Positions 21-64,000 of a DNA stretch of 64,000 nucleotides are shown one piece after another (within the stretch, counting starts at the first letter, position 1; each line of letters starts with the position of its first letter). The DNA lies in IMG/VR virus record IMGVR_UViG_3300024252_000004, positions 280,770 through 344,769 of that record; one strand, given 5' to 3'. A program made the translations under genes and the position numbers. Origin of the DNA: a virus. A model generated the notes under the pieces. It had not been told where the DNA came from. It made no database searches and was given only the letters and a program-made list of their open reading frames with translations.

Positions 21-668
21 TTGGCTAAGGTATTCGTTAAGACTCCGGAGTTTGTGAGGACACAGTCCGAACTAAGATTAGATGTTCCAGAGAACCCCTT
101 TTTAGAATATGTCAAAAATATTCACGAAAGCTGGATGATGAATGAAAGAAGAGCTGAATTTCTTGAGTTATATGGTGACAAAAGAGCGGCCGACGAATTA
201 AGAGAAGCTACATTAAACTTTGCAGTATTCACTCGTGGTTACAACTCAAACGTAATAGCAGCACGACAAGCGGTTAATATAGCATTAGATAAAGGTATGT
301 CGTTTTGTATGATCAATTACGGAAACCTTATTGATGTGCCAAAGATCTTATTAGAAGTATCGGACAAGATAGATAAAGTTGATACAAGTTTTTACAGTGA
401 CTTGATGATGCCTCCAAGGTGGCAGTATGATTTTTATCCAAGAGATACAGATCATTTGCTTCCGGCATCGAGGTGCTCTATTTTTATTATTGAGAAGATT
501 CCTGGCACAAAATTCAGCGGCCATGTCCCAAAGGACAGCCGGGCCGAAGCAAAGATACCAGAAGTACAAGATTTGGTTGACATTATGGACGAGCTTCCTG
601 CTGAAATTCAGGAGACCATGGCCCTTTACTTACCATTTTTTGCGGCAAGTGAGAGCAAAATTTGCTAA
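21..668 (+). CDS. hypothetical protein (may be 5'-partial; frame stays open to window edge)
   Basis: 215-codon ORF from TTG; no in-frame stop upstream to nt 3; no recognisable motif. Confidence 0.45.
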   Translation: MAKVFVKTPEFVRTQSELRLDVPENPFLEYVKNIHESWMMNERRAEFLELYGDKRAADELREATLNFAVFTRGYNSNVIAARQAVNIALDKGMSFCMINYGNLIDVPKILLEVSDKIDKVDTSFYSDLMMPPRWQYDFYPRDTDHLLPASRCSIFIIEKIPGTKFSGHVPKDSRAEAKIPEVQDLVDIMDELPAEIQETMALYLPFFAASESKIC

Positions 669-690
669 ATTTCTCACAAGATGGTATGAT
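662..690 (+). promoter_or_regulatory. sigma70-like promoter, copy 1 of conserved family
   Basis: TTGCTA(662-667)-N17(AATTTCTCACAAGATGG)-TATGAT(685-690); ~35 nt near-identical to copy at 8435; tRNA pair 874-1029 downstream. Confidence 0.6.
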
Positions 691-7457: not shown

Positions 7458-8146
7458 AATGAATTCGATCATATTGGAAATTAAAGCTGCCGAAGGCGGC
7501 ACAGATGCAAAGCTCCTTGTTGATGAACAGTTGGCCATTTATAGGAGATACTGTTCTCGGAGGTCTCTTTGAGTTAGCTCTCTTAGATTCCAGAAGCGGT
7601 TTTATCAGATGCAGAGTCAGCGGCAAAAACGTCAAAAAACATTTTAGGCATGAGCCTGGAGGCCACAGATGGCAAAGGGTTCCTCCGACAGAGAGACGAG
7701 GAAGGGTTCATACTTCTACGATCACTGTCGCTGTCCTACCGGAAGTAACTGAATCTGAAGTTAAGATTAGCGAAAAAGATTTAGAATGGAAAGCCTTTAG
7801 GGGTTCTGGTCCCGGCGGTCAGCATAGAAACAAAACTGATTCTGCTGTGTCGCTTCACCATAAGCCTACTGGAATCAAGATCCGTTCTGAATCTCAAAAG
7901 AGTCAGAAGCAGAATAAGGACACCGCTCTTGCAATATTGAGAGCGAGGTTGCATTCTGAGCAGAGAGAGTCTCAGTCTTTGCGACGCAGTAATATGAGGA
8001 AGAGCCAAGTGGGCTCAGGTATGCGCGCCGACAAAATCAGGACGATCAGGTTGCAGGACGGACAAGTTACGGATCACAACACTGGAAAAAGAATCTCTGC
8101 GAAAAAATATTTGCGCGGAGACTTGGAAGGTCTATTTGAAAAGTAA
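7458..8146 (+). CDS. class I peptide chain release factor, RF1-like (PxT = PPT), lacking domain 1; needs +1 frameshift at 7570 and has an additional +1 frame break at 7499/7501
   Basis: SD GGAGG + ATG 7458; MNSIILEIKAAEGG (frame 0) / TDAKLLVDEQLAIYRRYCSRRSL (frame +1, stops at UGA 7570) / ELALLDSRSGF..GGHRWQRVPPTERRGRVHTS..SGPGGQHRNKTDSA..DKIRTIRLQDGQVTDH (frame +2) align contiguously to RF1. Confidence 0.75.
7559..7573 (+). other. prfB-type programmed +1 ribosomal frameshift site
   Basis: GGAGG-UCU-CUU-UGA-G: SD-like element 3 nt upstream of CUU UGA, same architecture and spacing as E. coli prfB AGGGGG-UAU-CUU-UGA-C. Confidence 0.7.
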
Positions 8147-8336: not shown

Positions 8337-8434
8337 AAAAGAACACTGCCGGGTTTATTGATCCTGAAATTGCCATCAGACTTGGGGCCAATCGTCAAGG
8401 TTTTGGCGGGAACTGATAAAGTTTAGAGCAAAAT

Positions 8435-8463
8435 TTGCTAAATTTCTCGCAAGATGGTATATA
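8435..8463 (+). promoter_or_regulatory. sigma70-like promoter, family copy 2
   Basis: TTGCTA-N17(AATTTCTCGCAAGATGG)-TATATA; tRNA 8525 follows 62 nt downstream. Confidence 0.6.
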
Positions 8464-8524: not shown

Positions 8525-8617
8525 TGCGGGGTCGACTAGTCTGGCCCATGTCACCAGTCTCATAAGCTGGCTCTGAGTATACCTCAATCGTTGGTTCAAA
8601 TCCAACCCCCGCACCCA
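8525..8617 (+). tRNA. tRNA-like, anticodon CAT on class-II scaffold (19-nt variable arm), CCA encoded
   Basis: acceptor TGCGGGG/CCCCGCA perfect, D stem GAC/GTC, anticodon stem CCAGT/GCTGG loop CTCATAA, variable arm hairpin TGAG-TATAC-CTCA, T arm identical to tRNA 2556. Confidence 0.5.
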
Positions 8618-12779: not shown

Positions 12780-12812
12780 TAAAAGCCGGGTAATCGGTTT
12801 TAGAAGCGAATT

Positions 12813-12841
12813 TTTCTAAATTTCTCGTAGGATGTTATAGA
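12813..12841 (+). promoter_or_regulatory. sigma70-like promoter, family copy 3
   Basis: TTTCTA-N17(AATTTCTCGTAGGATGT)-TATAGA; tRNA-Tyr 62 nt downstream. Confidence 0.55.
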
Positions 12842-12902: not shown

Positions 12903-12990
12903 GGGTCGTTATCCCGTAGGGGCAGCGGTGGAGACTGTAAATCTCCTGTCATTATTGACTCGGTTGGTTCGACTCCAGCACGGCCCACCA
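12903..12990 (+). tRNA. tRNA-Tyr(GTA), class II, CCA encoded
   Basis: acceptor GGGTCGT/ACGGCCC, anticodon stem GGAGA/TCTCC loop CTGTAAA, long variable arm, T-loop TTCGACT. Confidence 0.7.
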
Positions 12991-13130
12991 TATTTGTGAA
13001 GCGATACATCGATAAACACTGACCACGGCTACGGGCGGGATGATGAAGGGGCAGTAGCCTGTCCCAAATCGCTCACAAATATACTTTCGGGACAGTCTCT
13101 TGTAGGAAAGATTACGCGCGTGACATCGGT

Positions 13131-13664
13131 TCAATTCCGATCTGTTCCACCACTGAATCGTCCATCACCTGATAGGAAGTGATCAACTTCGTGACAGGTC
13201 GGACAAACAATCTCTAAGTTCTCAATCGAGTTATTCTCTCTATTGCGATCTTTATGATGAACTTGTAGAACTTCAGGATGCTTATCGTATCCGCAATGAG
13301 AGCATATCTGTTCAAGATGCTCTTTTGCAGTTTTGCGATAATCCTTTCGGTTATCAGTATAGTGCGGCGGATGAATTTCTTTTATCCCTCCTATCCTTTG
13401 TGCAATATCTTTGCAATTTCTTGAGCAAAAAACAAATCCGCTTTTAGATGCAGCAATCTTAGAGGCAGACCTGTAAAAGTCTTTATCACAAATAGCACAA
13501 ACACAATTTGGCTTTTGTATCTTCGGATTTTTCTTTCTCCATTCAAAAGAGCATTTGCGATTGCAAAATTTTGCGTTTCCTCTGTTTAATTCTTTAATTT
13601 CTGCATCAAATTGCGTATAACAATTTAAGCAACTTTTCTTAATGGTTCTACCTTTGTAAGACAT
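13131..13664 (-). CDS. HNH homing endonuclease
   Basis: HHKDRNRENNSIENLEIVCPTCH HNH motif plus multiple CxxC pairs; sits between tRNA-Tyr and tRNA-Cys. Confidence 0.75.
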   Translation of the reverse strand: MSYKGRTIKKSCLNCYTQFDAEIKELNRGNAKFCNRKCSFEWRKKNPKIQKPNCVCAICDKDFYRSASKIAASKSGFVFCSRNCKDIAQRIGGIKEIHPPHYTDNRKDYRKTAKEHLEQICSHCGYDKHPEVLQVHHKDRNRENNSIENLEIVCPTCHEVDHFLSGDGRFSGGTDRN

Positions 13665-13821: not shown

Positions 13822-13843
13822 CTCCCTTAGCTCAGTTGGTTAA
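13822..13843 (+). pseudogene. tRNA 5' remnant (acceptor + D arm start CTCCCTTAGCTCAGTTGGTTAA) truncated by HNH gene
   Basis: canonical tRNA 5' end with no matching D-stem 3' strand, anticodon or T arm; overlaps the stop of minus-strand HNH 13840-14325. Confidence 0.45.
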
Positions 13844-14325
13844 TTCCATTTTGGTTTTAACTTATAGTGTTCTTCTCTGTGGCAGTTTGCACACAGCATG
13901 ACGCATTTGTCAAGTTCAGCTTTAATGGTATCCCAGGCATAAGTATTCCCAGAGCCAATGCCGAAATCTTTCTCGTTTGGTTCTAAATGGTGAAAATCAA
14001 ATGCATCAATACATTTGTCATATCCACAATACTCGCACTTTTCTCCTTTATATTCTACGGCTTTAATCTTACACTGCCATCTTCTTTTTTGCACATAGTA
14101 CTTGTTCTTACACTTTTTTGAGCAAAATTTTCCTGAAGATGGCAAGTCACACAAATGCCATGTGCATTCCAAAGCTTTTGACTTTTCTTTATTTTTTGGA
14201 GAAGTTGATAGTCCAAATTTCTTAAGCCAATGACGAACATTTGTTTGCGAGCAAGATAGCTCTTTTGCGATTTCTCTGGTAGAATAATTATTATCAACTA
14301 ATAACTTTAAAGTTTCTAATTCCAT
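13840..14325 (-). CDS. HNH endonuclease with N-terminal HTH
   Basis: FDFHHLEPNEKD...LCANCHREEH HNH motif; N-terminal STREIAKELSCSQTNVRHWLKKFG helix-turn-helix. Confidence 0.75.
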   Translation of the reverse strand: MELETLKLLVDNNYSTREIAKELSCSQTNVRHWLKKFGLSTSPKNKEKSKALECTWHLCDLPSSGKFCSKKCKNKYYVQKRRWQCKIKAVEYKGEKCEYCGYDKCIDAFDFHHLEPNEKDFGIGSGNTYAWDTIKAELDKCVMLCANCHREEHYKLKPKWN

Positions 14326-21690: not shown

Positions 21691-21768
21691 GGGGAATTAG
21701 CTCAATTGGCCAGAGCGGCAGATTCTAGACCTGCGACAGTGTGGGTTCGAGCCCCACATTCCCTACCA
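21691..21768 (+). tRNA. candidate amber-suppressor tRNA, anticodon CTA, tRNA-Trp-like body
   Basis: acceptor GGGGAAT/ATTCCCT, D arm GCTC-AATTGGCCA-GAGC, anticodon loop TTCTAGA on stem GCAGA/CCTGC (A-C mismatch at 31-39), 6-nt variable, T arm GTGGG-TTCGAGC-CCCAC, CCA encoded. Confidence 0.5.
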
Positions 21769-21993: not shown

Positions 21994-22027
21994 TAATAAG
22001 ATTTCAAATTTACGCCGTTTCTTCAAT

Positions 22028-22126
22028 GGGATAGTTGCTGACAGGTAGGCAGCTACTTATTTGGAAGCGTTCTTAAGGGGCCTGCCTCCTATAGATCGGG
22101 GGGTTCGATTCCCCTACGGAGTACCA
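22028..22126 (+). other. tRNA-like 3' fragment (T arm + acceptor 3' strand + CCA) without a matching 5' acceptor strand
   Basis: GGGGG-TTCGATT-CCCCT then ACGGAGT-A-CCA at 22097-22126; no complementary 5' strand within 100 nt upstream. Confidence 0.3.
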
Positions 22127-22492
22127 CAGACAAGGCAATTAATTGAAAGGAAGTTGGCTTAAAGGCAGCCATCTTTTAAAGAGTGAGGTCCAGACTCCTG
22201 GGAATTATGGCAACAGAACGAATGCTATCAAGAGTAAGTTCTGCGAAAGAGAATGAGAAGCTGTCAGGCTCAAAGTTCTCGGGAGGTATAGCAACTGTGA
22301 GATTGTAAGAACCGTGGAGACTCACGGCGTTTCGGGCGAGCCTCTGTAGTAGCTGTAGAGAGTTGAGAAACTTGCAGTGAATGATGACGCTTAGTAGCCT
22401 CTTTGGCGTTATAGCACACTTTCAATTTTGCCTTAGTCTCCGGTTGATTTATTTTTTTGATATGCGTAAGATGATTACGCAAGGAGTTTGCG

Positions 22493-22585
22493 ATGTTCGC
22501 ACGTAGAGAAATTACAAATTTTCGATTTATTACTGTCTCCCGATTTATGTTTGTCGGTAGAGACGGTGACGTGTGGCATATCTGA
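22493..22585 (+). CDS. small ORF (30 aa) with strong SD in an otherwise ORF-free ~490-nt stretch
   Basis: AAGGAG 22481-22486 then ATG 22493. Confidence 0.3.
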   Translation: MFARREITNFRFITVSRFMFVGRDGDVWHI

Positions 22586-22618
22586 ACTAAAATATTCGGG
22601 TGCCTCACACAAAAATGA

Positions 22619-22694: not shown

Positions 22695-22748
22695 CTTACA
22701 GTAAACTTTTATAGAAAACCCACAAGGTGTTATAAAAGATTGTTGCGA

Positions 22749-26070: not shown

Positions 26071-26517
26071 GTGAACAACATCACTAATGAGGTTGCAATG
26101 AGTTGGAAAACGAAACTGCTTCGAAAGTTCTTCCTTGTGAAGGAGATTAGATCAAGAAAAGGTATGCTGCATTTTGAAAGATGGCGCATCCTGAATGTTT
26201 GGTTGTTCGCTATATACATCCACAAGATTTATCGTAGCGACGAAGACATCCATCAGCATTCGCATCCTTGGATTTTCTTTTCTAAAATTCTCACAGGAGG
26301 TTATATAGAGCAGAGGGGCGGACGCGGCGATCTTATGACCCAAGGCTCATGGACAATCATGAAGCCGAAAGAGTACCACAAGATTACGGTCATCAAACCG
26401 ACGACCTCGTTCGTAATCACTGGCCCGAGGCTACATAAGTGGGGTTACATGACGAGCGAAGGACATGTTGATTCTGTCGCTTATAGAGAAAGAAAAAGAA
26501 AGAACGTGACGCATTAG
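26071..26517 (+). CDS. hypothetical protein
   Basis: 148-aa ORF from GTG; alternative ATG 26098. Confidence 0.4.
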   Translation: MNNITNEVAMSWKTKLLRKFFLVKEIRSRKGMLHFERWRILNVWLFAIYIHKIYRSDEDIHQHSHPWIFFSKILTGGYIEQRGGRGDLMTQGSWTIMKPKEYHKITVIKPTTSFVITGPRLHKWGYMTSEGHVDSVAYRERKRKNVTH

Positions 26518-26706: not shown

Positions 26707-26792
26707 GGCTCCGTGATGGAACTGGTATACATGCTGGCCTTAGAAGTCAGTGCCTTTATGGATTGTGGGTTCGAATCCCACCGGAGCTACCA
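26707..26792 (+). tRNA. tRNA-Leu(TAG), class II, CCA encoded
   Basis: acceptor GGCTCCG/CGGAGCT, D stem ATG/CAT, anticodon stem CTGGC/GTCAG loop CTTAGAA, 14-nt variable arm. Confidence 0.65.
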
Positions 26793-28922: not shown

Positions 28923-28928
28923 AATTAT

Positions 28929-29225
28929 GGGGGTATCAGGTCTGTTTCAGACCGATTCCGGGCGGCCCACACGATCAGTGGGACGGGTGAGAGGATTGCT
29001 CACTGCCCCCGCCAGTTTTGGGAATATATAGGCCAAGGTACAACGGCCGCTTTCAAAGCAGTATTCATGATATCTGCGCAGGAGAATTACCTGCTATTCC
29101 CGCCAGTTAGATTAGTTTTGGGGAGTGGGTGGACTGGTTCGAGTCCAGATAGAAAGGTTATACCCTACCCGCATGGCAAAGGATCGCGCGTCCGACTTTA
29201 GGTTCGAATCCTAAACTCTCCACCA
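28929..29225 (+). ncRNA. ~300-nt ORF-free structured RNA with tRNA-like 3' end and alanine-identity-like G3-U70/A73 (tmRNA-like? class unknown)
   Basis: 5' GGGGG..; 3' TTAGG-TTCGAAT-CCTAA + ACTCTCC-A-CCA; internal second T-arm-like GGACTGG-TTCGAGT-CCAG; no canonical tag reading frame. Confidence 0.3.
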
Positions 29226-29241
29226 TTTAAAAAGGAATTTA

Positions 29242-34006: not shown

Positions 34007-34339
34007 TTACGAGAGAAGGTCTTCTTCGACAATTGATTCTACCATGCATCTAACGTCCCAAAAGAGTGGGGACTTAAACCATTCCCCTCTTTTGACGTAC
34101 GATGAAACAAGTCTCTGATGGCACTCTTTCTCTAATTTGTAAACCTTCTCAGAAGGTAATGAATAGATTTCTATCAGTTCCAATGATTCAGAAGAACCAG
34201 TTTGTAACTGTTTCAGTCGCTTGGCAGGGTTTTTGCTAACACCGATTTTAAGGTCAGTGCCATTACTTATGATGTAAAGGTATGAAGTTTCCATGAGAAC
34301 ACCTAATATTTCGGGTAGGATTGTGAGTGAGGGTATCAT
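34007..34339 (-). CDS. T5orf172/GIY-YIG-like domain protein
   Basis: YLYIISNGTDLKIGVSKNPAKRLKQLQTG matches T5orf172 (MUG113) motif; only other minus-strand gene in this region. Confidence 0.5.
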   Translation of the reverse strand: MIPSLTILPEILGVLMETSYLYIISNGTDLKIGVSKNPAKRLKQLQTGSSESLELIEIYSLPSEKVYKLEKECHQRLVSSYVKRGEWFKSPLFWDVRCMVESIVEEDLLS

Positions 34340-35223: not shown

Positions 35224-36138
35224 ATGCACCTAACGTCAATAGAACAAATTGACCGAGAGACATTAGAGAAGTTATTCCAAAGAGCGGATTACTGGAAAAG
35301 AATAAGAACACAAAAGCTTACAACAATTAAGCCGCTTCAGGGCCGCTTATTGACAAACCTATTTTATGAGCCATCGACAAGGACTGCATCATCGTTCTTT
35401 GCGGCGGCTTCTTTTCTTGGTGCCTCTGTTAATCAAATTACCAATGTAGCTTTCTCTTCTGTATCAAAAGGCGAAACGTTTGAAGACACCATTCTGACTC
35501 TCGCACAATACTCTGACGGAATTATCTTAAGGCACCCTGAGAAAGGGTACGCAGACTTAGCCGCCAGTGTGTCTCCTGTCCCCATCATTAATGCTGGGGA
35601 TGGCACAGGTGAACACCCTACTCAGACGCTACTTGATTTATATACAATATACTCAGAGCTTGGCAGGATAGATGACTTAGCTGTGGCAATGGTTGGTGAT
35701 CTTAAAAATGGGCGAACAGTTCATAGTTTAACTAAAGCGTTTGCAAAGTACGAAACAGAAACCGATCTTATTTTCATCTCTCCAGAAGAGCTTAAGATGC
35801 CCGAAGAGTATTGCGAAGTCTCTAAGGTTCTTGGGATACAAGAAACAGAAGATATGACTTCCGCAATGGAAAATAATCATATCGATGTACTGTATATGAC
35901 TCGCATACAAAAAGAGCGCTTCAATAATCAAGAAGATTATAAAAGGTATCATGGCTGCTATGAGCTTACGCCAAAAGAAATGAAGCTCATGCCGGACGAA
36001 TCATGTGTCCTTCATCCCTTGCCAAGGGTTGGGGAGATATCGTCAGAGGTTGATCACGACCCAAGGGCTGCATACTTTCGTCAAGTAAAGAATGGTATGT
36101 TCATGAGAATGGCGATATTAGAGGCATTAATTTCTTAA
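35224..36138 (+). CDS. pyrB: aspartate carbamoyltransferase catalytic subunit
   Basis: EPSTRT carbamoyl-phosphate motif, HPTQ, and VLHPLPRVGEI..FRQVKNGMFMRMAILEAL characteristic of ATCase rather than OTCase. Confidence 0.8.
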   Translation: MHLTSIEQIDRETLEKLFQRADYWKRIRTQKLTTIKPLQGRLLTNLFYEPSTRTASSFFAAASFLGASVNQITNVAFSSVSKGETFEDTILTLAQYSDGIILRHPEKGYADLAASVSPVPIINAGDGTGEHPTQTLLDLYTIYSELGRIDDLAVAMVGDLKNGRTVHSLTKAFAKYETETDLIFISPEELKMPEEYCEVSKVLGIQETEDMTSAMENNHIDVLYMTRIQKERFNNQEDYKRYHGCYELTPKEMKLMPDESCVLHPLPRVGEISSEVDHDPRAAYFRQVKNGMFMRMAILEALIS

Positions 36139-36159
36139 TTTCCCACAAGATGGTATGTG
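36131..36159 (+). promoter_or_regulatory. sigma70-like promoter, family copy 4 (overlaps pyrB 3' end)
   Basis: TTTCTT-N17(AATTTCCCACAAGATGG)-TATGTG; gene 36224 downstream. Confidence 0.55.
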
Positions 36160-36223: not shown

Positions 36224-36841
36224 ATGAGTTGTTACGAATGGGAAGAGGGCTCTATCAAAATACCTGTAAGCCATTGGCCTATGATTAAAAAGGCAGTTAG
36301 GGATGCCTATAACAAGCATCAAGAGGCGGAATACATGGCGGCTCTTTCGGTGTATAATCGGGTATGCGCCGCCGGTAAGGGGCGACGCAATTTTGATTTT
36401 CGAGCAGCAGAGCGCAAGCTGAGCTATGAGAATACGGATCGTTACCTTCTTCCCTGGCTAAAATTCAACGCATCTGAGAAACCGTTAAAACCGAAAAAGA
36501 AAGATTTTTCAAAAGCCACAAGCACCTCCACTCTGTACTCATATGACGAAATCGTTATCGGCTTCGATAACAAGACCCGCTGTATTGAGTGGCGCGTCAG
36601 CGAAAACAACCGAGCAGTAGAGCGTGCTCATGGGCACCCTGTCAGCAAAGCGTTCTTTTCGGAATTGAACAGGGTAAACTGGACCTCCAAAACTGGAGGC
36701 GTTTTCGTTGGCAATGATGAGTATAACAGAGAAGACTATAGTGCCGGTGGTGGTGGAAACTATATAACCAAATACTATGGTGGAATCGGAAAACGAGAAG
36801 CTGGTTTTAGTTCAAAACGTTCTTTGTTTAGCGGTTACTAA
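36224..36841 (+). CDS. hypothetical protein (205 aa)
   Basis: ATG start downstream of promoter copy 4. Confidence 0.5.
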   Translation: MSCYEWEEGSIKIPVSHWPMIKKAVRDAYNKHQEAEYMAALSVYNRVCAAGKGRRNFDFRAAERKLSYENTDRYLLPWLKFNASEKPLKPKKKDFSKATSTSTLYSYDEIVIGFDNKTRCIEWRVSENNRAVERAHGHPVSKAFFSELNRVNWTSKTGGVFVGNDEYNREDYSAGGGGNYITKYYGGIGKREAGFSSKRSLFSGY

Positions 36842-38501: not shown

Positions 38502-38513
38502 ATGCTTCGAAAT

Positions 38514-38542
38514 TTTCTAAAATTCCTGTAGGACGTTATAGG
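38514..38542 (+). promoter_or_regulatory. sigma70-like promoter, family copy 5, flanked by inverted repeat CTTCGAAA/TTTCGAAG
   Basis: TTTCTA-N17(AAATTCCTGTAGGACGT)-TATAGG; gene 38585 downstream. Confidence 0.55.
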
Positions 38543-38584
38543 TTTTCGAAGCGATACTTCAACCCTTAACCAAGGAAATTTAAC

Positions 38585-38827
38585 ATGGGTTTCAATAGAG
38601 TTTCGACCAACAAGCCGTGCGACAAGCACTTCTGTTTTTTCATTCAGGACTTTCGGGAAGGTGATTCCGTTTACGTCATGGTTAATAGGCAGCGCGTCCG
38701 AGGGCGAGTTGTGGCAGTTAACAAGCGTGAGAACGTAGTTCTGTGGGAGGATGGCGATGGTGTTATCAGCCGCTCAGTTCTTGACGAGTTCTCATTCCTC
38801 GGACCTTTCGACAGTGAGTGGGTCTGA
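38585..38827 (+). CDS. hypothetical protein
   Basis: 80-aa ORF 43 nt downstream of promoter copy 5. Confidence 0.45.
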   Translation: MGFNRVSTNKPCDKHFCFFIQDFREGDSVYVMVNRQRVRGRVVAVNKRENVVLWEDGDGVISRSVLDEFSFLGPFDSEWV

Positions 38828-44846: not shown

Positions 44847-44860
44847 TCAAAACTTGCCTG

Positions 44861-44892
44861 CTCCACCTTAATTGCGTATAATTAAGGTGGAG
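44861..44892 (+). promoter_or_regulatory. perfect 13-bp hairpin sequestering the RBS of HNH gene 44900
   Basis: CTCCACCTTAATT-GCGTAT-AATTAAGGTGGAG; SD GGTGGAGG lies in the 3' arm, ATG 8 nt downstream. Confidence 0.55.
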
Positions 44893-44899
44893 GGCAAAT

Positions 44900-47988: not shown

Positions 47989-48362
47989 GAGATGAACTTC
48001 AGCAAAAAATATATGACAAGTATCCTGAAATGTTTAATAATCGTTATCATACAGAAATTCTATGTGGTGATTGCTGGCTTCCAATTGTAGATGCAGCTTG
48101 CCAAAAAATAAAGAGACGACTTAAGGGTACAGGACACTTTGTAAGGTTTATTTCAATTAGTAGCTTATCGTATCCCCCTTCTCTTGGATTTTTGGGACCA
48201 GCGAGACTAAGATTTACTTGGACTTTGGTAAGAAGAGAATTTTATACACATAATGAACCGAGCAATCAGGGCAAGATTTTGATCGGGGAAGTTAAAGAGA
48301 TTTTATGCATGGCTACACGTTTGTCTTTGCTGATACCAGAGGAGATCATAAATGATCGGTAA
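47985..48362 (+). CDS. hypothetical protein
   Basis: ATGA overlap at 47985; ORF open from 47895. Confidence 0.4.
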   Translation: MRDELQQKIYDKYPEMFNNRYHTEILCGDCWLPIVDAACQKIKRRLKGTGHFVRFISISSLSYPPSLGFLGPARLRFTWTLVRREFYTHNEPSNQGKILIGEVKEILCMATRLSLLIPEEIINDR

Positions 48363-48600
48363 ATTATTCGAGTCTATTAACAAGGTGAGAGAGATTAACT
48401 CGGAGCATTGTTATCACAAGGTTCTCGTGTTTGATGAGGATGGGCATTACGAAACTCTCATGATGACGGAACACGAGTTATCTGTAATTAGACAGCGCTC
48501 AGAGAGGAACCGTGACGAGGAGCTTGTTCCTAAGTGGCATGACAAGGCTTATGTTTCTGCTGTTTTTTCGGTAAAGAGTCTATTCGCCAAAGTTTTCTAA
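48352..48600 (+). CDS. hypothetical protein
   Basis: 82-aa ORF. Confidence 0.4.
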   Translation: MIGKLFESINKVREINSEHCYHKVLVFDEDGHYETLMMTEHELSVIRQRSERNRDEELVPKWHDKAYVSAVFSVKSLFAKVF

Positions 48601-48622
48601 ATTTCCCATAAGATGTTATAGG
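48594..48622 (+). promoter_or_regulatory. sigma70-like promoter, family copy 6, pointing into the 3' end of the minus-strand gene 48640-49566 (antisense)
   Basis: TTTCTA-N17(AATTTCCCATAAGATGT)-TATAGG; no plus-strand ORF or tRNA downstream. Confidence 0.5.
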
Positions 48623-48639: not shown

Positions 48640-49566
48640 TTACGCGATTGAAGCCCACCAAGCTTCGGCGTCAAAGTTCTCATCTTCATCGGCTAATGGC
48701 AATTCTTCCGAATCATCAGGCGTAGGCGCCTGCTGCTCAATAAGGGAAGCAATTGCCATTTGTGCTGTACCGGTAATGAATTCAAGGTTTGGCAGATAAA
48801 GAGTCTTCATGAACTTCTCGGCAGGAGCTTCAACAGCGAGCCATAGAAGCATAGAGATACCAAAGTCTATTGCGGAGACTGTCAAGCCTCCAATTCCAAG
48901 ACCTGCGAAATATCCCAATACTGTCGGCATCAATAGGAGGATATCTTTAAACCCGTCAAGAAGATTGACGACAAAAGAAATTCCTTCGTCCCACAGTAAG
49001 CTGCCAGATTTTGTAAGTTCTACAACGGTTTTGAGTTCGACTGGAGACTCGGAATACTCTTTAGCTTTGCTCATCATTTTTGCAGGCTGTAGTGTGTCCA
49101 TCCAGTTAAGGCCAACGTCACCAGATTTACCCTGTACTTTTTTGAATTCCTGAAAGCCATAATACACATTCTTAATGGCTATTAAGAAACTGAATAGTGG
49201 AGCAGCTTTGCCGAGCAGAGCCATAGCTCCTGCTTCTTTAACAAAGAAATCCTCTGATGTCATATTCATATTTGACATTACAACCCTAAGCTTCTCAGCA
49301 GAATCTTTAATATCTTCAGGGTCAGCTTCTTTTAGCGCCGCTGCATCTTTAAGGTTTTTTGCAGCTTCAACGAGGTATACTATAGCTTTAGTTTGCACCT
49401 GAGTTTCGTGAGGACGTTCGATCTCATTGAGAACTGCTTTCCACGCCTCAAGGTCTCCGCCAACGATATTTGCAGACTTGATTAGCAAGTGCGTAAGCTC
49501 GTCGGCTTCGCGGTTAAGGTTGGCTTCTTTTAGGATATCAATAAGGTATTTAAGTTCTTTGTCCAC
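48640..49566 (-). CDS. hypothetical protein with C-terminal transmembrane helices
   Basis: 308-aa ORF, the only long minus-strand gene here; C-terminal LLMPTVLGYFAGLGIGGLTVSAIDFGISMLLWLAV hydrophobic segments. Confidence 0.55.
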   Translation of the reverse strand: MDKELKYLIDILKEANLNREADELTHLLIKSANIVGGDLEAWKAVLNEIERPHETQVQTKAIVYLVEAAKNLKDAAALKEADPEDIKDSAEKLRVVMSNMNMTSEDFFVKEAGAMALLGKAAPLFSFLIAIKNVYYGFQEFKKVQGKSGDVGLNWMDTLQPAKMMSKAKEYSESPVELKTVVELTKSGSLLWDEGISFVVNLLDGFKDILLLMPTVLGYFAGLGIGGLTVSAIDFGISMLLWLAVEAPAEKFMKTLYLPNLEFITGTAQMAIASLIEQQAPTPDDSEELPLADEDENFDAEAWWASIA

Positions 49567-49600: not shown

Positions 49601-50725
49601 ATGAATATAATTCAAGCCAGTAATGCTAACGTAGTAAGGGTTGCGGAGTATTTCCTACCAAAGGAAATTACAAATCAAAACTTAATAATAGCAGGTGGGT
49701 TTGCTACGTGGCTGCTATATTTGCATAAGACCGTAGAAGATTGGGATAAGTTTTTTGCAGACTTAGATGTGAGTCTCATAAATCTTGAGGATAAACGGTT
49801 AAAGGATGAAGCGACAAAAGGTATTGCGAAATTTGGAGATATAGATATCTGGATTCCGGAGAACCATTCTTTAAGAAAGATGAAAATAATCACAAGTCAG
49901 GAGCTTTATCCCTTTGGCCTTAAAGAAAACGCAGGACTTGTGGAGAAAAGTCTTGCTTCCGAGAAATCATTTGAGAAAAGCTTCGGCATTTCCTCTGACC
50001 TTCTGAAGGTTAGCAGATTCGCACACACATATAGGCTTGAGCATACAGTTAAACTTTTAGGAAAAATAGCGGTTCCGTCAGTGTTCGGCTTGTTTGAGCC
50101 AATTGTAATTCCGTATAGAAAGCGAATTAAAATGAGGAATGCTTTTCAGATTATAAGAAGAACCTGTGATTCGTTAGAGGAAGTTTTTTCTACATTTGAT
50201 TTTCACCATACAAGAGCAGCCTACTACAATGGCTTACTACACTTTACAAAAAAAGCTGAGAGGACTTTCGAAGAGAAGACAATCTTTCCGACAAAGAGTT
50301 TCCTTGAGCGACACGATAGCATATCTATTAACTCTGCCTGTAGAGCATTTAAGTATATGGAGAGGTACGGATTTGGCTTCTCAGAAGACTTGGCAGATAA
50401 GATTGCGGACCTGTATCTTCAAGTTGGAATAGCAGAGGATACTGCGGATTATGTTGGCCCTCCAAAATATGCCATCATCAATTTATTCAATGCAACGAAT
50501 CTCACCCCAGAGTATGATCCAGATTATTTAATCTTTTTTTCAGAGATCACTCCAGAAACCTTGAGTAAGGTTAAAGGTATTTATCTTAAAAGATTTCTAA
50601 CATCATTTAAGACATTTTCGAGAATGTCATGCTTTAAAGATGAGTATATAGGTTTGTTGCTATGTTGCGACATGGAAGAAATAAGTAAAGTAATCGAGAG
50701 GCGACTATATGAACAATCCGACTGA
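49601..50725 (+). CDS. hypothetical protein; weak nucleotidyltransferase-like N-terminus
   Basis: 374-aa ORF; IIAGGFATWLLY..DLDVSL..FGDIDIWIPE loosely resembles GS..DxD of pol-beta-type NTases. Confidence 0.45.
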   Translation: MNIIQASNANVVRVAEYFLPKEITNQNLIIAGGFATWLLYLHKTVEDWDKFFADLDVSLINLEDKRLKDEATKGIAKFGDIDIWIPENHSLRKMKIITSQELYPFGLKENAGLVEKSLASEKSFEKSFGISSDLLKVSRFAHTYRLEHTVKLLGKIAVPSVFGLFEPIVIPYRKRIKMRNAFQIIRRTCDSLEEVFSTFDFHHTRAAYYNGLLHFTKKAERTFEEKTIFPTKSFLERHDSISINSACRAFKYMERYGFGFSEDLADKIADLYLQVGIAEDTADYVGPPKYAIINLFNATNLTPEYDPDYLIFFSEITPETLSKVKGIYLKRFLTSFKTFSRMSCFKDEYIGLLLCCDMEEISKVIERRLYEQSD

Positions 50726-58921: not shown

Positions 58922-58942
58922 GCCAATTTAGAATGGAGCAGA

Positions 58943-58972
58943 AACAAGGAGGGCTTAGCCTTCCTTGTTTGC
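58943..58972 (+). terminator. candidate intrinsic terminator
   Basis: AACAAGGAGG-GCTTAG-CCTTCCTTGTT then TTGCG. Confidence 0.45.
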
Positions 58973-58985
58973 GTTAGAGCATATT

Positions 58986-59014
58986 TTTCCAAATTTCCCA
59001 CAGGGTGGTATAAG
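58986..59014 (+). promoter_or_regulatory. sigma70-like promoter, family copy 7, upstream of purA
   Basis: TTTCCA-N17(AATTTCCCACAGGGTGG)-TATAAG. Confidence 0.55.
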
Positions 59015-59087
59015 GGAGCATGTCCGTAGCTCTTAGTAGTTGCCTTGTATTCGCTTCGGTACTATTATCGCTCATGGAGGAATTTAC

Positions 59088-60098
59088 ATGTTGTTATCCG
59101 CAGATGTTGTAGTGGGGCTCGCTTGGGGCGATGAAGCAAAAGGAAAGATCACCTCAGCCTTGGCAGCTACAGGGCAGTACGACGCCGTGGCTCGCTGGGC
59201 CGGAGGCAATAACGCAGGCCATACGGTCTACGTCAATGGCGAAAAATACAAAACACACCTTGTTCCAAGCGGCGTATTCCACGGAATGCTTTCCATCGTT
59301 GGTCCCGGCTGTGTATTGCATCCAGAAGAATTTGAAAAAGAATTGGCTTACCTCGCAGGACACGGATTCGATACCTCTCTTGTGAAGGTATCTCCGAATT
59401 GCCACATTGTTCAAGACGAGCATATTGAGTTTGACAAGCAGAACCTTGCAAAGAAGCTTGGCACAACCTCAAAAGGTATTGCACCGAGTTACGCAGCTAA
59501 GGCGGCAAGAACAGGTCTTCTTGCCAAAGACTATTACGAAGGCAGTGACATCCTATGGGACGGTCAGCTTAGCGGTGTATTATTGTGTGAAGGAGCGCAG
59601 GGGGCTTGGTTAGATATTGATCACGGGAATTATCCCTATGTGACCTCAAGCATTACACTTGCCTATGGAGCTTGCAGTATAGGCTTCGCACCACAGCTCA
59701 TTAAGAGCATCTGGGGCGCTGCCAAAATTTATGACACAAGAAGCGGAGAAGATCCTATTTTTCCTGCGTCACTACTTGATGACCCTATGCTGTCAAAGGT
59801 TGGGGAAATTGGGGCCGAATATGGTGTGACCACAGGGCGCAGAAGAAAGGTAAATTGGCTTGATGTTGATATGCTGATTAAGTCTATCAATTTGACTGGA
59901 TGCACACACGTTGTTGTTAGCAAATGTGATGTATTGGAAGAGGCCGGAGTTTACAGGATGTATTGTAGAGGGATTCAGAACGAGCTTTCTGAGTTCGAAA
60001 GCATTACCGATATGACCGGAGTGCTGGAGACTCTTCTTAGAAAGAATTGTTCCCTTCTCAAGAGAGTGATCTTTTCCTCTTCACCGGAGAATATATGA
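59088..60098 (+). CDS. purA: adenylosuccinate synthetase
   Basis: SD GGAGG + ATG 59088; VVVGLAWGDEAKGK P-loop and GGNNAGHTV motif. Confidence 0.85.
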   Translation: MLLSADVVVGLAWGDEAKGKITSALAATGQYDAVARWAGGNNAGHTVYVNGEKYKTHLVPSGVFHGMLSIVGPGCVLHPEEFEKELAYLAGHGFDTSLVKVSPNCHIVQDEHIEFDKQNLAKKLGTTSKGIAPSYAAKAARTGLLAKDYYEGSDILWDGQLSGVLLCEGAQGAWLDIDHGNYPYVTSSITLAYGACSIGFAPQLIKSIWGAAKIYDTRSGEDPIFPASLLDDPMLSKVGEIGAEYGVTTGRRRKVNWLDVDMLIKSINLTGCTHVVVSKCDVLEEAGVYRMYCRGIQNELSEFESITDMTGVLETLLRKNCSLLKRVIFSSSPENI

Positions 60099-63865: not shown

Positions 63866-64000
63866 TTTTTCTAAGCTACTCGTAGGAGGTTATAGGAGGT
63901 CGTGCAGGAAATGCGTCTTCATCCCCCTACTCACAAAGGAGTTATATAGCTTATGGCAACAATTAAAAGTACACTTGATTCATTACTATCTATGCCGAAT

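Follow-up and report, generated by a model that had tools for sequence, protein, structure and literature searches.

We describe a repeated DNA element in a 64,000-nucleotide (nt) stretch of viral DNA, referred to below as the window (positions 280,770 to 344,769 of the IMG/VR record IMGVR_UViG_3300024252_000004). The element spans 29–45 bases, is present in ten copies, all of them on the plus strand, and keeps its position in related phages. Judging from its strand, location, and conservation, it is very likely a family of promoters. As to how these promoters would be read, we lean towards a phage promoter class served by a bacterial-type RNA polymerase together with a phage-encoded or phage-modified specificity factor.

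The motif family and its ten copies

A preliminary description of the window had reported seven copies of the motif, always on the plus strand. All seven are present, at the positions and with the sequences reported there. Their total, however, proved to be ten. A weight-matrix scan of both strands of the window, a check that the preliminary description had proposed for the whole genome, returned ten sites with scores of 29–42.5 bits, adding three weaker copies (22708, 26279, and 63868) to the seven, and the plus-strand-only pattern holds for 10 of 10. The next-best site on either strand of the window scored ~10 bits, and no copy was added by the flanks that were scanned, 9 kb on the upstream side and 5 kb on the downstream side. 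With the consensus TTTCTAAATTTCYCRYARGATGKTATR and up to three mismatches allowed, eight matches were obtained, all on the plus strand, against 0.00 expected from 100 dinucleotide-preserving shuffles. Among the 20 largest repeat families listed by the repeat finder, the motif (families D3/D5) is the only clearly recurrent one unrelated to tRNA; the others are arms of transfer RNAs (tRNAs) or sets of two to three weakly matching copies. Neither a consensus RNA fold nor an Rfam family match was found for the motif region, which rules out an explanation by RNA structure and indicates that the motif acts as DNA.

Gene calls and tRNAs occupy 90.7% of the window and lie nearly all on the plus strand. 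Nine of the ten copies are located in the remaining 9.3%, or touch only the stop codon of the gene upstream. They share the orientation of the almost entirely plus-strand genes, are found 12–183 nt before a tRNA or 42–73 nt before a start codon, and partition the region into units of 2.4–10.4 kb. The copies and the elements that accompany them are listed here in order of position, with protein lengths in amino acids (aa):

Copy 1, 652..690, plus strand: TTGCTAAATTTCTCACAAGATGGTATGAT, with AGAGCAAAAT upstream; overlaps the stop codon of a 226-aa gene ending at 668; 183 nt before tRNA-Pro at 874
Copy 2, 8425..8463, plus strand: intergenic; 61 nt before the tRNA at 8525
Hairpin, 12781-12801: terminator-like, AAAAGCCGGGTAATCGGTTTT; precedes copy 3
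Copy 3, 12803..12841, plus strand: intergenic; 61 nt before tRNA-Tyr at 12903
Copy 4, 22708..22736, plus strand: new, weaker, 29 bits; TTTATAGAAAACCCACAAGGTGTTATAAA; between two tRNA-Phe genes, 12 nt before the second (22749)
Copy 5, 26279..26307, plus strand: new, 39.7 bits; within a conserved 139-aa gene (26098-26517); 399 nt before the tRNA-Leu cluster at 26707
Copy 6, 36121..36159, plus strand: overlaps the stop codon of the aspartate carbamoyltransferase gene (35224-36138); 64 nt before a 205-aa gene at 36224
Copy 7, 38514..38542, plus strand: intergenic; 42 nt before an 80-aa gene at 38585; CTTCGAAA at 38505 and TTTCGAAG at 38544
Copy 8, 48594..48622, plus strand: overlaps the stop codon of an 82-aa gene (48352-48600); faces the 3′ end of a convergent minus-strand 308-aa gene
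Hairpin, 58942..58971, plus strand: terminator-like, AAACAAGGAGGGCTTAGCCTTCCTTGTTTG; just before copy 9
Copy 9, 58976..59014, plus strand: intergenic; 73 nt before the short purA gene (59088-60098)
Possible second, canonical promoter, 59040..59068, plus strand: TTGCCT-17-TATTAT; between copy 9 and the purA start; conserved in the related loci L061 and L058
Copy 10, 63868..63896, plus strand: new, 34.7 bits; intergenic; 56 nt before an AAA_5 (MoxR-like) ATPase gene starting at 63953

The measured distances agree with the preliminary description, which had placed three copies 60–180 nt upstream of tRNA genes (183, 61, and 61 nt to the tRNAs at 874, 8525, and 12903) and others ahead of purA and of the genes at 36224 and 38585 (73, 64, and 42 nt). 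The peculiarities it had noticed in single copies are literally present as well: the longer block AGAGCAAAATTTGCTAAATTTCTC is found in both copy 1 and copy 2, the near-palindrome GCAAAATTTGC lies over the −35 of these two copies, and the inverted repeat CTTCGAAA/TTTCGAAG brackets copy 7 (38514). The bracket is missing from a nearly identical copy in a related phage (L002), and we take both the near-palindrome and the bracket to be copy-specific features that lie outside the family.

Anatomy, relatives, and unusual copies

The anatomy of the element was derived from 17 copies of three lineages, with the TAT triplet set as −12 to −10. Invariant in all 17 are TT at −35/−34, G−17, G−14, and T−12 A−11 T−10. 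The copies align without gaps, and the 17-bp spacing is therefore exact in each of them, with no insertions or deletions, as had been claimed for the first seven. Information content amounts to ~31 bits from −35 to −7 and ~36 bits from −47 to −7; conservation reaches ~12 bp upstream of the −35 box, where a weaker AGAGCA-A block is seen at −47 to −38. The −35 box reads TTGCTA or TTTCTA, with G as the third base in a minority of copies and T in most, and matches TTGACA at three to four of six positions. The −10-like hexamer of the preliminary description stood in its first half, T−12 A−11 T−10 being invariant, but not in its last base: no more than 2 of the 17 copies have the canonical T−7. Both −8 and −7 are most often G; the hexamer reads TAT(A/G)NN and departs from a sigma70 −10 element (TATAAT with A−11 and T−7). 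An extended −10 (TGn) is present, G−14 being invariant and T−15 occurring in 13 of 17 copies.

Bases after TAT(A/G) are weakly conserved, with no more than ~0.5 bit each, and 12 of the 17 copies have a G 6 nt past the hexamer, the position expected of a sigma70 start. Inside the element there is a tandem AWTTTCY / AAATTTCYC repeat, its units about one helical turn apart. No dyad symmetry was detected in the motif, and the shared operator that the preliminary description had offered as an alternative thus receives no support from this side. Regions 4.2, 3.0, and 2.4 of sigma70 read duplex DNA through the positions that are invariant here (PMC2988021), and this coincidence argues for a sigma70-family holoenzyme. 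Canonical −35/−10 matches are not enriched in the gaps of the window (7 found vs. 5 expected), and a second canonical sigma70 promoter class across these gaps was rejected for that reason.

The purA copy is preceded by the gene for a 525-aa protein, whose homologues led us to five syntenic loci; there, this protein is 58, 57, 48, 39, and 33% identical to that of the window. A motif copy or a recognizable variant lies between a terminator-like hairpin and purA in each of the five (L061, L058, L060, L062, and L059). The copy ahead of the AAA_5 ATPase gene is also found in L060 and L059, the loci that reach far enough, and L058 and L059 also have the one that immediately precedes the convergent minus-strand gene. 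The window consensus is retained in L061, L058, and a further relative, L064. L059 has three copies of a version of its own, composed of TATAC(C/A), a T run, and G.GG(T/C)TAT(A/T)AGG, and L060 and L062 have a third version in common. What all lineages share is the 17-bp layout, the T-rich tract, and G(G/T/C)TAT(A/G) followed by purines.

A strict 27-nt pattern (~41 bits by our own count) had two IMG/VR matches, which lie together on a 236-kb contig of the same sample, two matches in metagenome contigs, and one in 596 Gb of genomes; with the exception of this last one, it was confined to the phage group of the window. This last match (L003 532-558, JBCNPG010000374.1), in a Pedobacter metagenome-assembled genome beside a TonB-dependent receptor gene, is most likely due to chance, ~0.5 matches being expected by our own estimate in 596 Gb (bacterial and archaeal). 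Relaxed patterns and patterns in which the spacer was left free gave only chance-level single matches elsewhere, including IMG/VR, and the spacer therefore belongs to the signal. The copies on the 236-kb contig are intergenic and co-oriented with genes. From its composition and gene content this contig probably represents a different, related phage; it is unlikely to be the rest of the window's genome, given its guanine-cytosine content of 45.9% vs. 42.7% and its own full-length purA. The tetranucleotide correlation between contig and window is 0.78, compared with 0.91–0.94 within the window.

A hairpin precedes the purA motif copy in all six lineages examined. Within the window a clear upstream hairpin is seen at copies 3 and 9 (29-nt motif from 12813 and 58986), and most other copies have no evident one. 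A canonical extended −10, TGGTAT(T/G)AT, with T−7 and a TTGCC box is conserved in three lineages in the stretch that separates the motif from the start of purA, which suggests two promoter classes in tandem at purA; this element (59040–59068) may be a second, host-type promoter or else a conserved 5′ leader. The purA product is short (336 aa), and DHH phosphoesterase and IMPDH-family genes follow. A PurZ (Z-genome) label given to the gene by PHROGs was rejected, as PurA structures matched at 1e-57 and PurZ at 5e-11.

An observation apart concerns the coding sequence of purA in two relatives. In L059 (11873–11960) and L062 (2465–2560) the purA homologue is broken after ...VVGLAWG (codon GGT) by an insert of 11 nt and 13 nt, respectively, which begins with TAA, forms a hairpin with the preceding codons (GCCTGGG...CCCAGGC), and ends with GGC directly before GAC-GAA (DEAKGK...). 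With a skip from GGT to GGC, the sequence is again exactly that of the uninterrupted homologues (window, L058, L060, and L061). Seen in two independent assemblies, the insert looks like a short translational bypass of the T4 gene 60 type, or like a pseudogene or frameshift.

Two copies have an unusual location. Copy 5 (26279) encodes the peptide FSKILTGGYI, which is conserved within the 139-aa protein, and the gene for this protein is genuine, with homologues of the same length and 63–74% identity. In the relative L064 (74% identity) the 29 nt of the motif are kept with zero synonymous changes, their sole difference being an A/G change permitted by the consensus, and the next eight codons show three synonymous changes. 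In the distant L063 the peptide is kept but the nucleotide motif is not. Comparison of these sequences points to apparent dual coding, a full-strength motif within coding sequence that is kept in L064, and copy 5 is probably an internal promoter ahead of the tRNA-Leu cluster. One of the homologues of the 139-aa protein is labelled cupin-family by its source.

Copy 8 (48594) faces the 3′ end of a convergent gene and has no plus-strand gene directly ahead, a layout that L058 and L059 have kept. The 308-aa minus-strand gene (48640-49566) is without family matches and reads as a genuine protein; the next plus-strand gene is a Gad2-like gene at 49601. From this arrangement, copy 8 would drive antisense transcription across the 308-aa gene before reaching the gene at 49601. 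Recoding of TAG as an explanation of the minus-strand open reading frame (ORF) after copy 8 was rejected, since the ORF reads as a real protein and TAG serves as stop in 17 of 117 genes.

The probable promoter class and its proposed reader

The proposal of the preliminary description that the motif is a promoter is backed by its strand, its intergenic position, its conserved position in syntenic relatives, and the hairpin just upstream; that transcription starts at the motif, at which base, and with which factor, we infer. Each copy would open a rightward transcription unit of 2.4–10.4 kb; besides clusters of tRNA genes, the units contain auxiliary genes, among them purA, those that follow pyrB, an AAA_5/VWA pair, and numerous small ORFs. 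The element has a sigma70-like skeleton, yet it lacks T−7 and is conserved across the whole spacer and ~12 bp upstream, and for this reason we propose that the host core (bacterial-type) RNA polymerase would read the motif, with a phage-encoded or phage-modified factor supplying or supplementing specificity. Candidates for this factor would be an RpoD-like phage sigma or a MotA-like activator placed over the −35/spacer region, and the promoters would then belong to a middle type, not to an immediate class of host sigma70. Sigma factors are encoded by T4-like jumbo phages that have no RNA polymerase of their own (PMC7824862). The preliminary description had also implied a phage-specific factor. 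It is plausible from the missing T−7, the ~31–36 bits of information, and the lineages' own versions, which extend to TATACC at −35, and the apparent second, canonical purA promoter favors it further; yet no gene for such a factor was found in the 78 kb read. Whether a phage-specific factor is strictly required we regard as evenly balanced.

Several points weigh against a phage promoter class of this kind. Pfam and PHROGs revealed no gene for a sigma, an RNA polymerase, MotA, AsiA, gp55, or gp33 within the window ±10 kb, the sequence read being 78 kb of a genome of at least 414 kb. (A 'Srd anti-sigma' PHROG match turned out to be a side match of an HNH/EndoVII-type endonuclease.) The comparison with sigma70 assumes that the sigma70 of the host has canonical specificity, and copy 5 is intragenic. 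In addition, the purA copy of the window, with 20 of 29 positions identical in L061, is no better conserved than its alignable flanks, in an intergenic region that can be aligned in full between the window, L061, and L058; what speaks for constraint is therefore the upkeep of the family consensus at many sites in several genomes. Uniformity within the genome could come partly from recombination between cassettes, and the spacer could be conserved partly through optimization for the host RNA polymerase or, as with the PeSL (promoter-early stem-loop) cassettes of phage T4, through recombination of promoter cassettes. Finally, in the relative L004 a Shine-Dalgarno sequence begins right after TATAAG, with ATG 12 nt further, a spacing that a start at the 3′ edge of the motif fits better than a start 7 nt downstream.

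The copies might instead be strong early promoters for unmodified host sigma70, comparable to the T4 'über' UP/−35/TGn/−10 promoters and PeSL cassettes, with the extra conservation arising from optimized polymerase capture and from recombination or duplication of cassettes. The invariant bases are indeed key sigma70 contacts (TT at −35/−34, G−14, T−12, and A−11) held at the optimal 17-bp spacing, the G enriched 6 nt after the hexamer (12 of 17) takes the sigma70 start position, several copies have a PeSL-like hairpin directly upstream, and the downstream tRNAs, nucleotide metabolism, and small ORFs are typical early genes. T4 early and PeSL promoters (PMC2988021, PMC4122927) are likewise repeated and intergenic, with UP-like, −35, TGn, and −10 elements around an N17 spacer, a terminator stem-loop just upstream (clear in the window at copies 3 and 9 but not at most other copies), and surroundings rich in tRNAs and small ORFs. 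Their consensus also extends past the canonical elements, as in the early promoters of T4 (PMC2988021), and differs between phage lineages, the PeSL consensus varying from one phage pair to another (PMC4122927). Nonetheless, T−7, the second most conserved base of the sigma70 −10, occurs in only 2 of 17 copies, whereas T4 early, middle, and PeSL promoters all retain it (PMC2988021, PMC4122927). The early and PeSL forms of the −10 are TATAAT, TAYWAT, and TAWWAT, in contrast to TAT(A/G)NN with G preferred at the last two positions in the window family, which thereby departs from the near-consensus TAnnAT of the PeSL consensuses (PMC4122927). The window family differs further in a spacer conserved base by base and in a −35 that reads TTTCTA/TTGCTA and, in the distant relative L059, TATACC, unlike every TTGACA variant. 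Together with the lack of enrichment of canonical −35/−10 matches in the gaps (7 vs. 5 expected), this makes unaided host sigma70 an unlikely reader.

Comparison with the MotA/AsiA-dependent middle promoters of T4, which work by sigma appropriation (PMC2988021, PMC6755090), showed likenesses as well as differences. There too a phage-specific box replaces or overlaps the −35, about half of the promoters have TGn, and tRNA and nucleotide-metabolism genes are among those driven; a likeness to the MotA box (a/t)(a/t)TGCTT(t/c)a is seen in the TTTGCTAAA of copies 1 and 2. However, TTTGCTAAA, found in three copies, is without CTT, and the distance from its end to TAT is 15 bp and not 12±1 bp; the GCTT core is missing from most copies, which read TTTCTAAA; middle promoters require a stringent TAnnnT −10; and no MotA or AsiA gene was found in the window ±10 kb. 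By box sequence and 12±1 bp placement (PMC2988021) the family is thus set apart from MotA-dependent promoters. The jumbo phage PA5oct, which uses the host RNA polymerase (PMC7318152), has ~32 conserved AT-rich intergenic promoter motifs, but these are of the canonical TTGAC / TATAATA form, which is not so in the window family.

A promoter of a phage RNA polymerase, either single-subunit and T7-like or non-canonical multisubunit and phiKZ-like, would be read as one block with a start at the purines after TATA. Promoters of T7-group single-subunit RNA polymerases form a continuous, lineage-specific block of ~23–29 bp with TATA then G, and those of T7 and SP6 end in ...TATAG(+1)GG. The window family is likewise continuous over at least 29 nt, has a version for each lineage as T7-group promoters do, and ends with TATA followed by a G-rich stretch (TATAGG and TATAAGGG in the window, TATAAGGGG and TATAGGGGGGG in L059); the Shine-Dalgarno sequence of L004 that starts directly after TATAAG would also suit such a start. 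The phage encodes a GroEL-type chaperonin, and chaperonin genes occur in some phiKZ-like phages. On the other hand, the block is longer than in the T7 group, its invariant positions suit a bipartite, sigma-type layout, and conservation falls after TAT(A/G), to no more than 0.5 bit per base, unlike T7-type conservation through +1 to ~+6. The early promoters of phiKZ, read by its virion RNA polymerase (PMC8244752), number ~30 copies and consist of an extended −10 box together with a T-rich element found upstream of −19, which is similar to the T-rich tract and G(G/T)TAT(A/G) of the cross-lineage core, but their sequence is different. No RNA polymerase gene, of the phiKZ type or otherwise, was seen in the 78 kb read. 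The similarity of the RNA ligase, moreover, points to Atu_ph07, XacN1, and huge uncultured phages, and Iyer et al. assign Atu_ph07 to group 2.2, which is without RNA polymerases (PMC7824862). We therefore hold a phage RNA polymerase to be improbable, slightly more so than unaided host sigma70.

The motif could also be a strand-specific DNA site other than a promoter: a phage regulator might use it as an operator, it might mark a junction between cassettes or one left by recombination, or it might serve as a signal in packaging or replication. Specific DNA-binding sites typically have a high information content, the tandem AWTTTCY / AAATTTCYC repeat has its units about one helical turn apart, and copy 8 (48594) and its orthologues face a convergent rather than a co-directional gene. 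Set against this are the lack of dyad symmetry, the constant orientation of the copies with transcription, in gaps after terminators and before genes or tRNAs, a TT-17-TGnTAT layout that is specifically promoter-like, and a 2.4–10 kb spacing that fits operon lengths; such a site appears very unlikely.

Building on a phage promoter class with its own specificity factor, we put forward, tentatively and with somewhat less than even confidence, that a clade of marine megaphages, so far uncultivated, has a private promoter code (a sigma70-like skeleton without T−7, ~35 bits, and one version per lineage), co-evolving with a phage-encoded sigma or specificity factor. This code would be strong enough to persist within a conserved coding sequence (copy 5) and opposite a convergent gene, in the latter case maybe with a regulatory antisense role.

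The phage and the meaning of the family

Two contigs, one of 413,986 bp and one of 129,948 bp from JGI sample 3300024258, encode proteins identical to those of the window. The window is therefore part of an uncultivated marine phage of at least 414 kb. On the larger contig (ena:ERZ27250246:k141_1236755) it corresponds, by our own mapping of locus ranges, to about 237,791–301,790 in reversed orientation, and samples with this phage include JGI 3300024258 and 3300028173. The window carries 31 tRNA genes and a transfer-messenger RNA (tmRNA), all on the plus strand, and genes for a GroEL-type chaperonin, the short PurA, aspartate carbamoyltransferase, IF3, an RF-1-domain protein, ribosomal protein L7/L12, an RNA ligase, and HNH endonucleases, along with many small ORFs of no assigned function. 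No near relative was found among GenBank phages by DNA, by the 525-aa protein, or by a 395-aa protein, and no relatives of the 525-aa protein were found in IMG/VR. GroEL, the S49 peptidase, and DUF2201 gave only generic matches. Of the phage similarities, that of the RNA ligase alone was informative: its nearest matches, 33–37% identical, are in huge uncultured phages and in Atu_ph07, Phosso, and XacN1. The phage matches of other proteins were mixed or absent.

Some further features of the window were noted. A tRNA with anticodon CTA (amber-suppressor type, 'Pyl' in ARAGORN) lies at 21691–21768, and the RF-1-domain protein is encoded at 7505–8146; as TAG is used as stop in 17 of 117 window genes, the region uses the standard code. 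T-arm/acceptor sequences resembling tRNA, called by neither ARAGORN nor Rfam, are present at 13126–13162, 22102–22131, and 29197–29230, in large gene-free gaps (12991–13130, 21994–22618, and 28923–29241), and may be degenerate, split, or intron-containing tRNA genes. Minus-strand HNH endonuclease genes and a T5orf172/MUG113 gene (13131–13664, 13840–14325, and 34007–34339) are interleaved with the plus-strand tRNA genes and, from this placement, look like mobile insertions in the tRNA region. The phage tmRNA (44444–44846) has the tag DDYSFVYANAGRGFGAPVVAYA and is followed at 44854–44899 by a palindrome with 13-bp arms (CTCCACCTTAATT...AATTAAGGTGGAG), which includes a TTGCCT-17-TATAAT match.

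Taken by itself, the motif is a rather unremarkable feature, in all likelihood the uniform promoter class of one large virulent phage whose lineage is unstudied. It provides a transcription-unit map for 78 kb of an uncultivated 414-kb phage, with ten units, 31 tRNAs, a tmRNA, and auxiliary metabolic genes. It also supplies a probe of 29 nt whose specificity for this phage group is nearly complete. Transcription in huge phages is almost unstudied. If a phage factor reads the motif, the lineage variants would form a natural data set that pairs promoter versions with variants of sigma or RNA polymerase in huge phages; otherwise, the family would be another case of the highly uniform promoter class that is well known from large virulent phages. 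The lineage-specific versions, together with the question of the reader, leave room for something more interesting.

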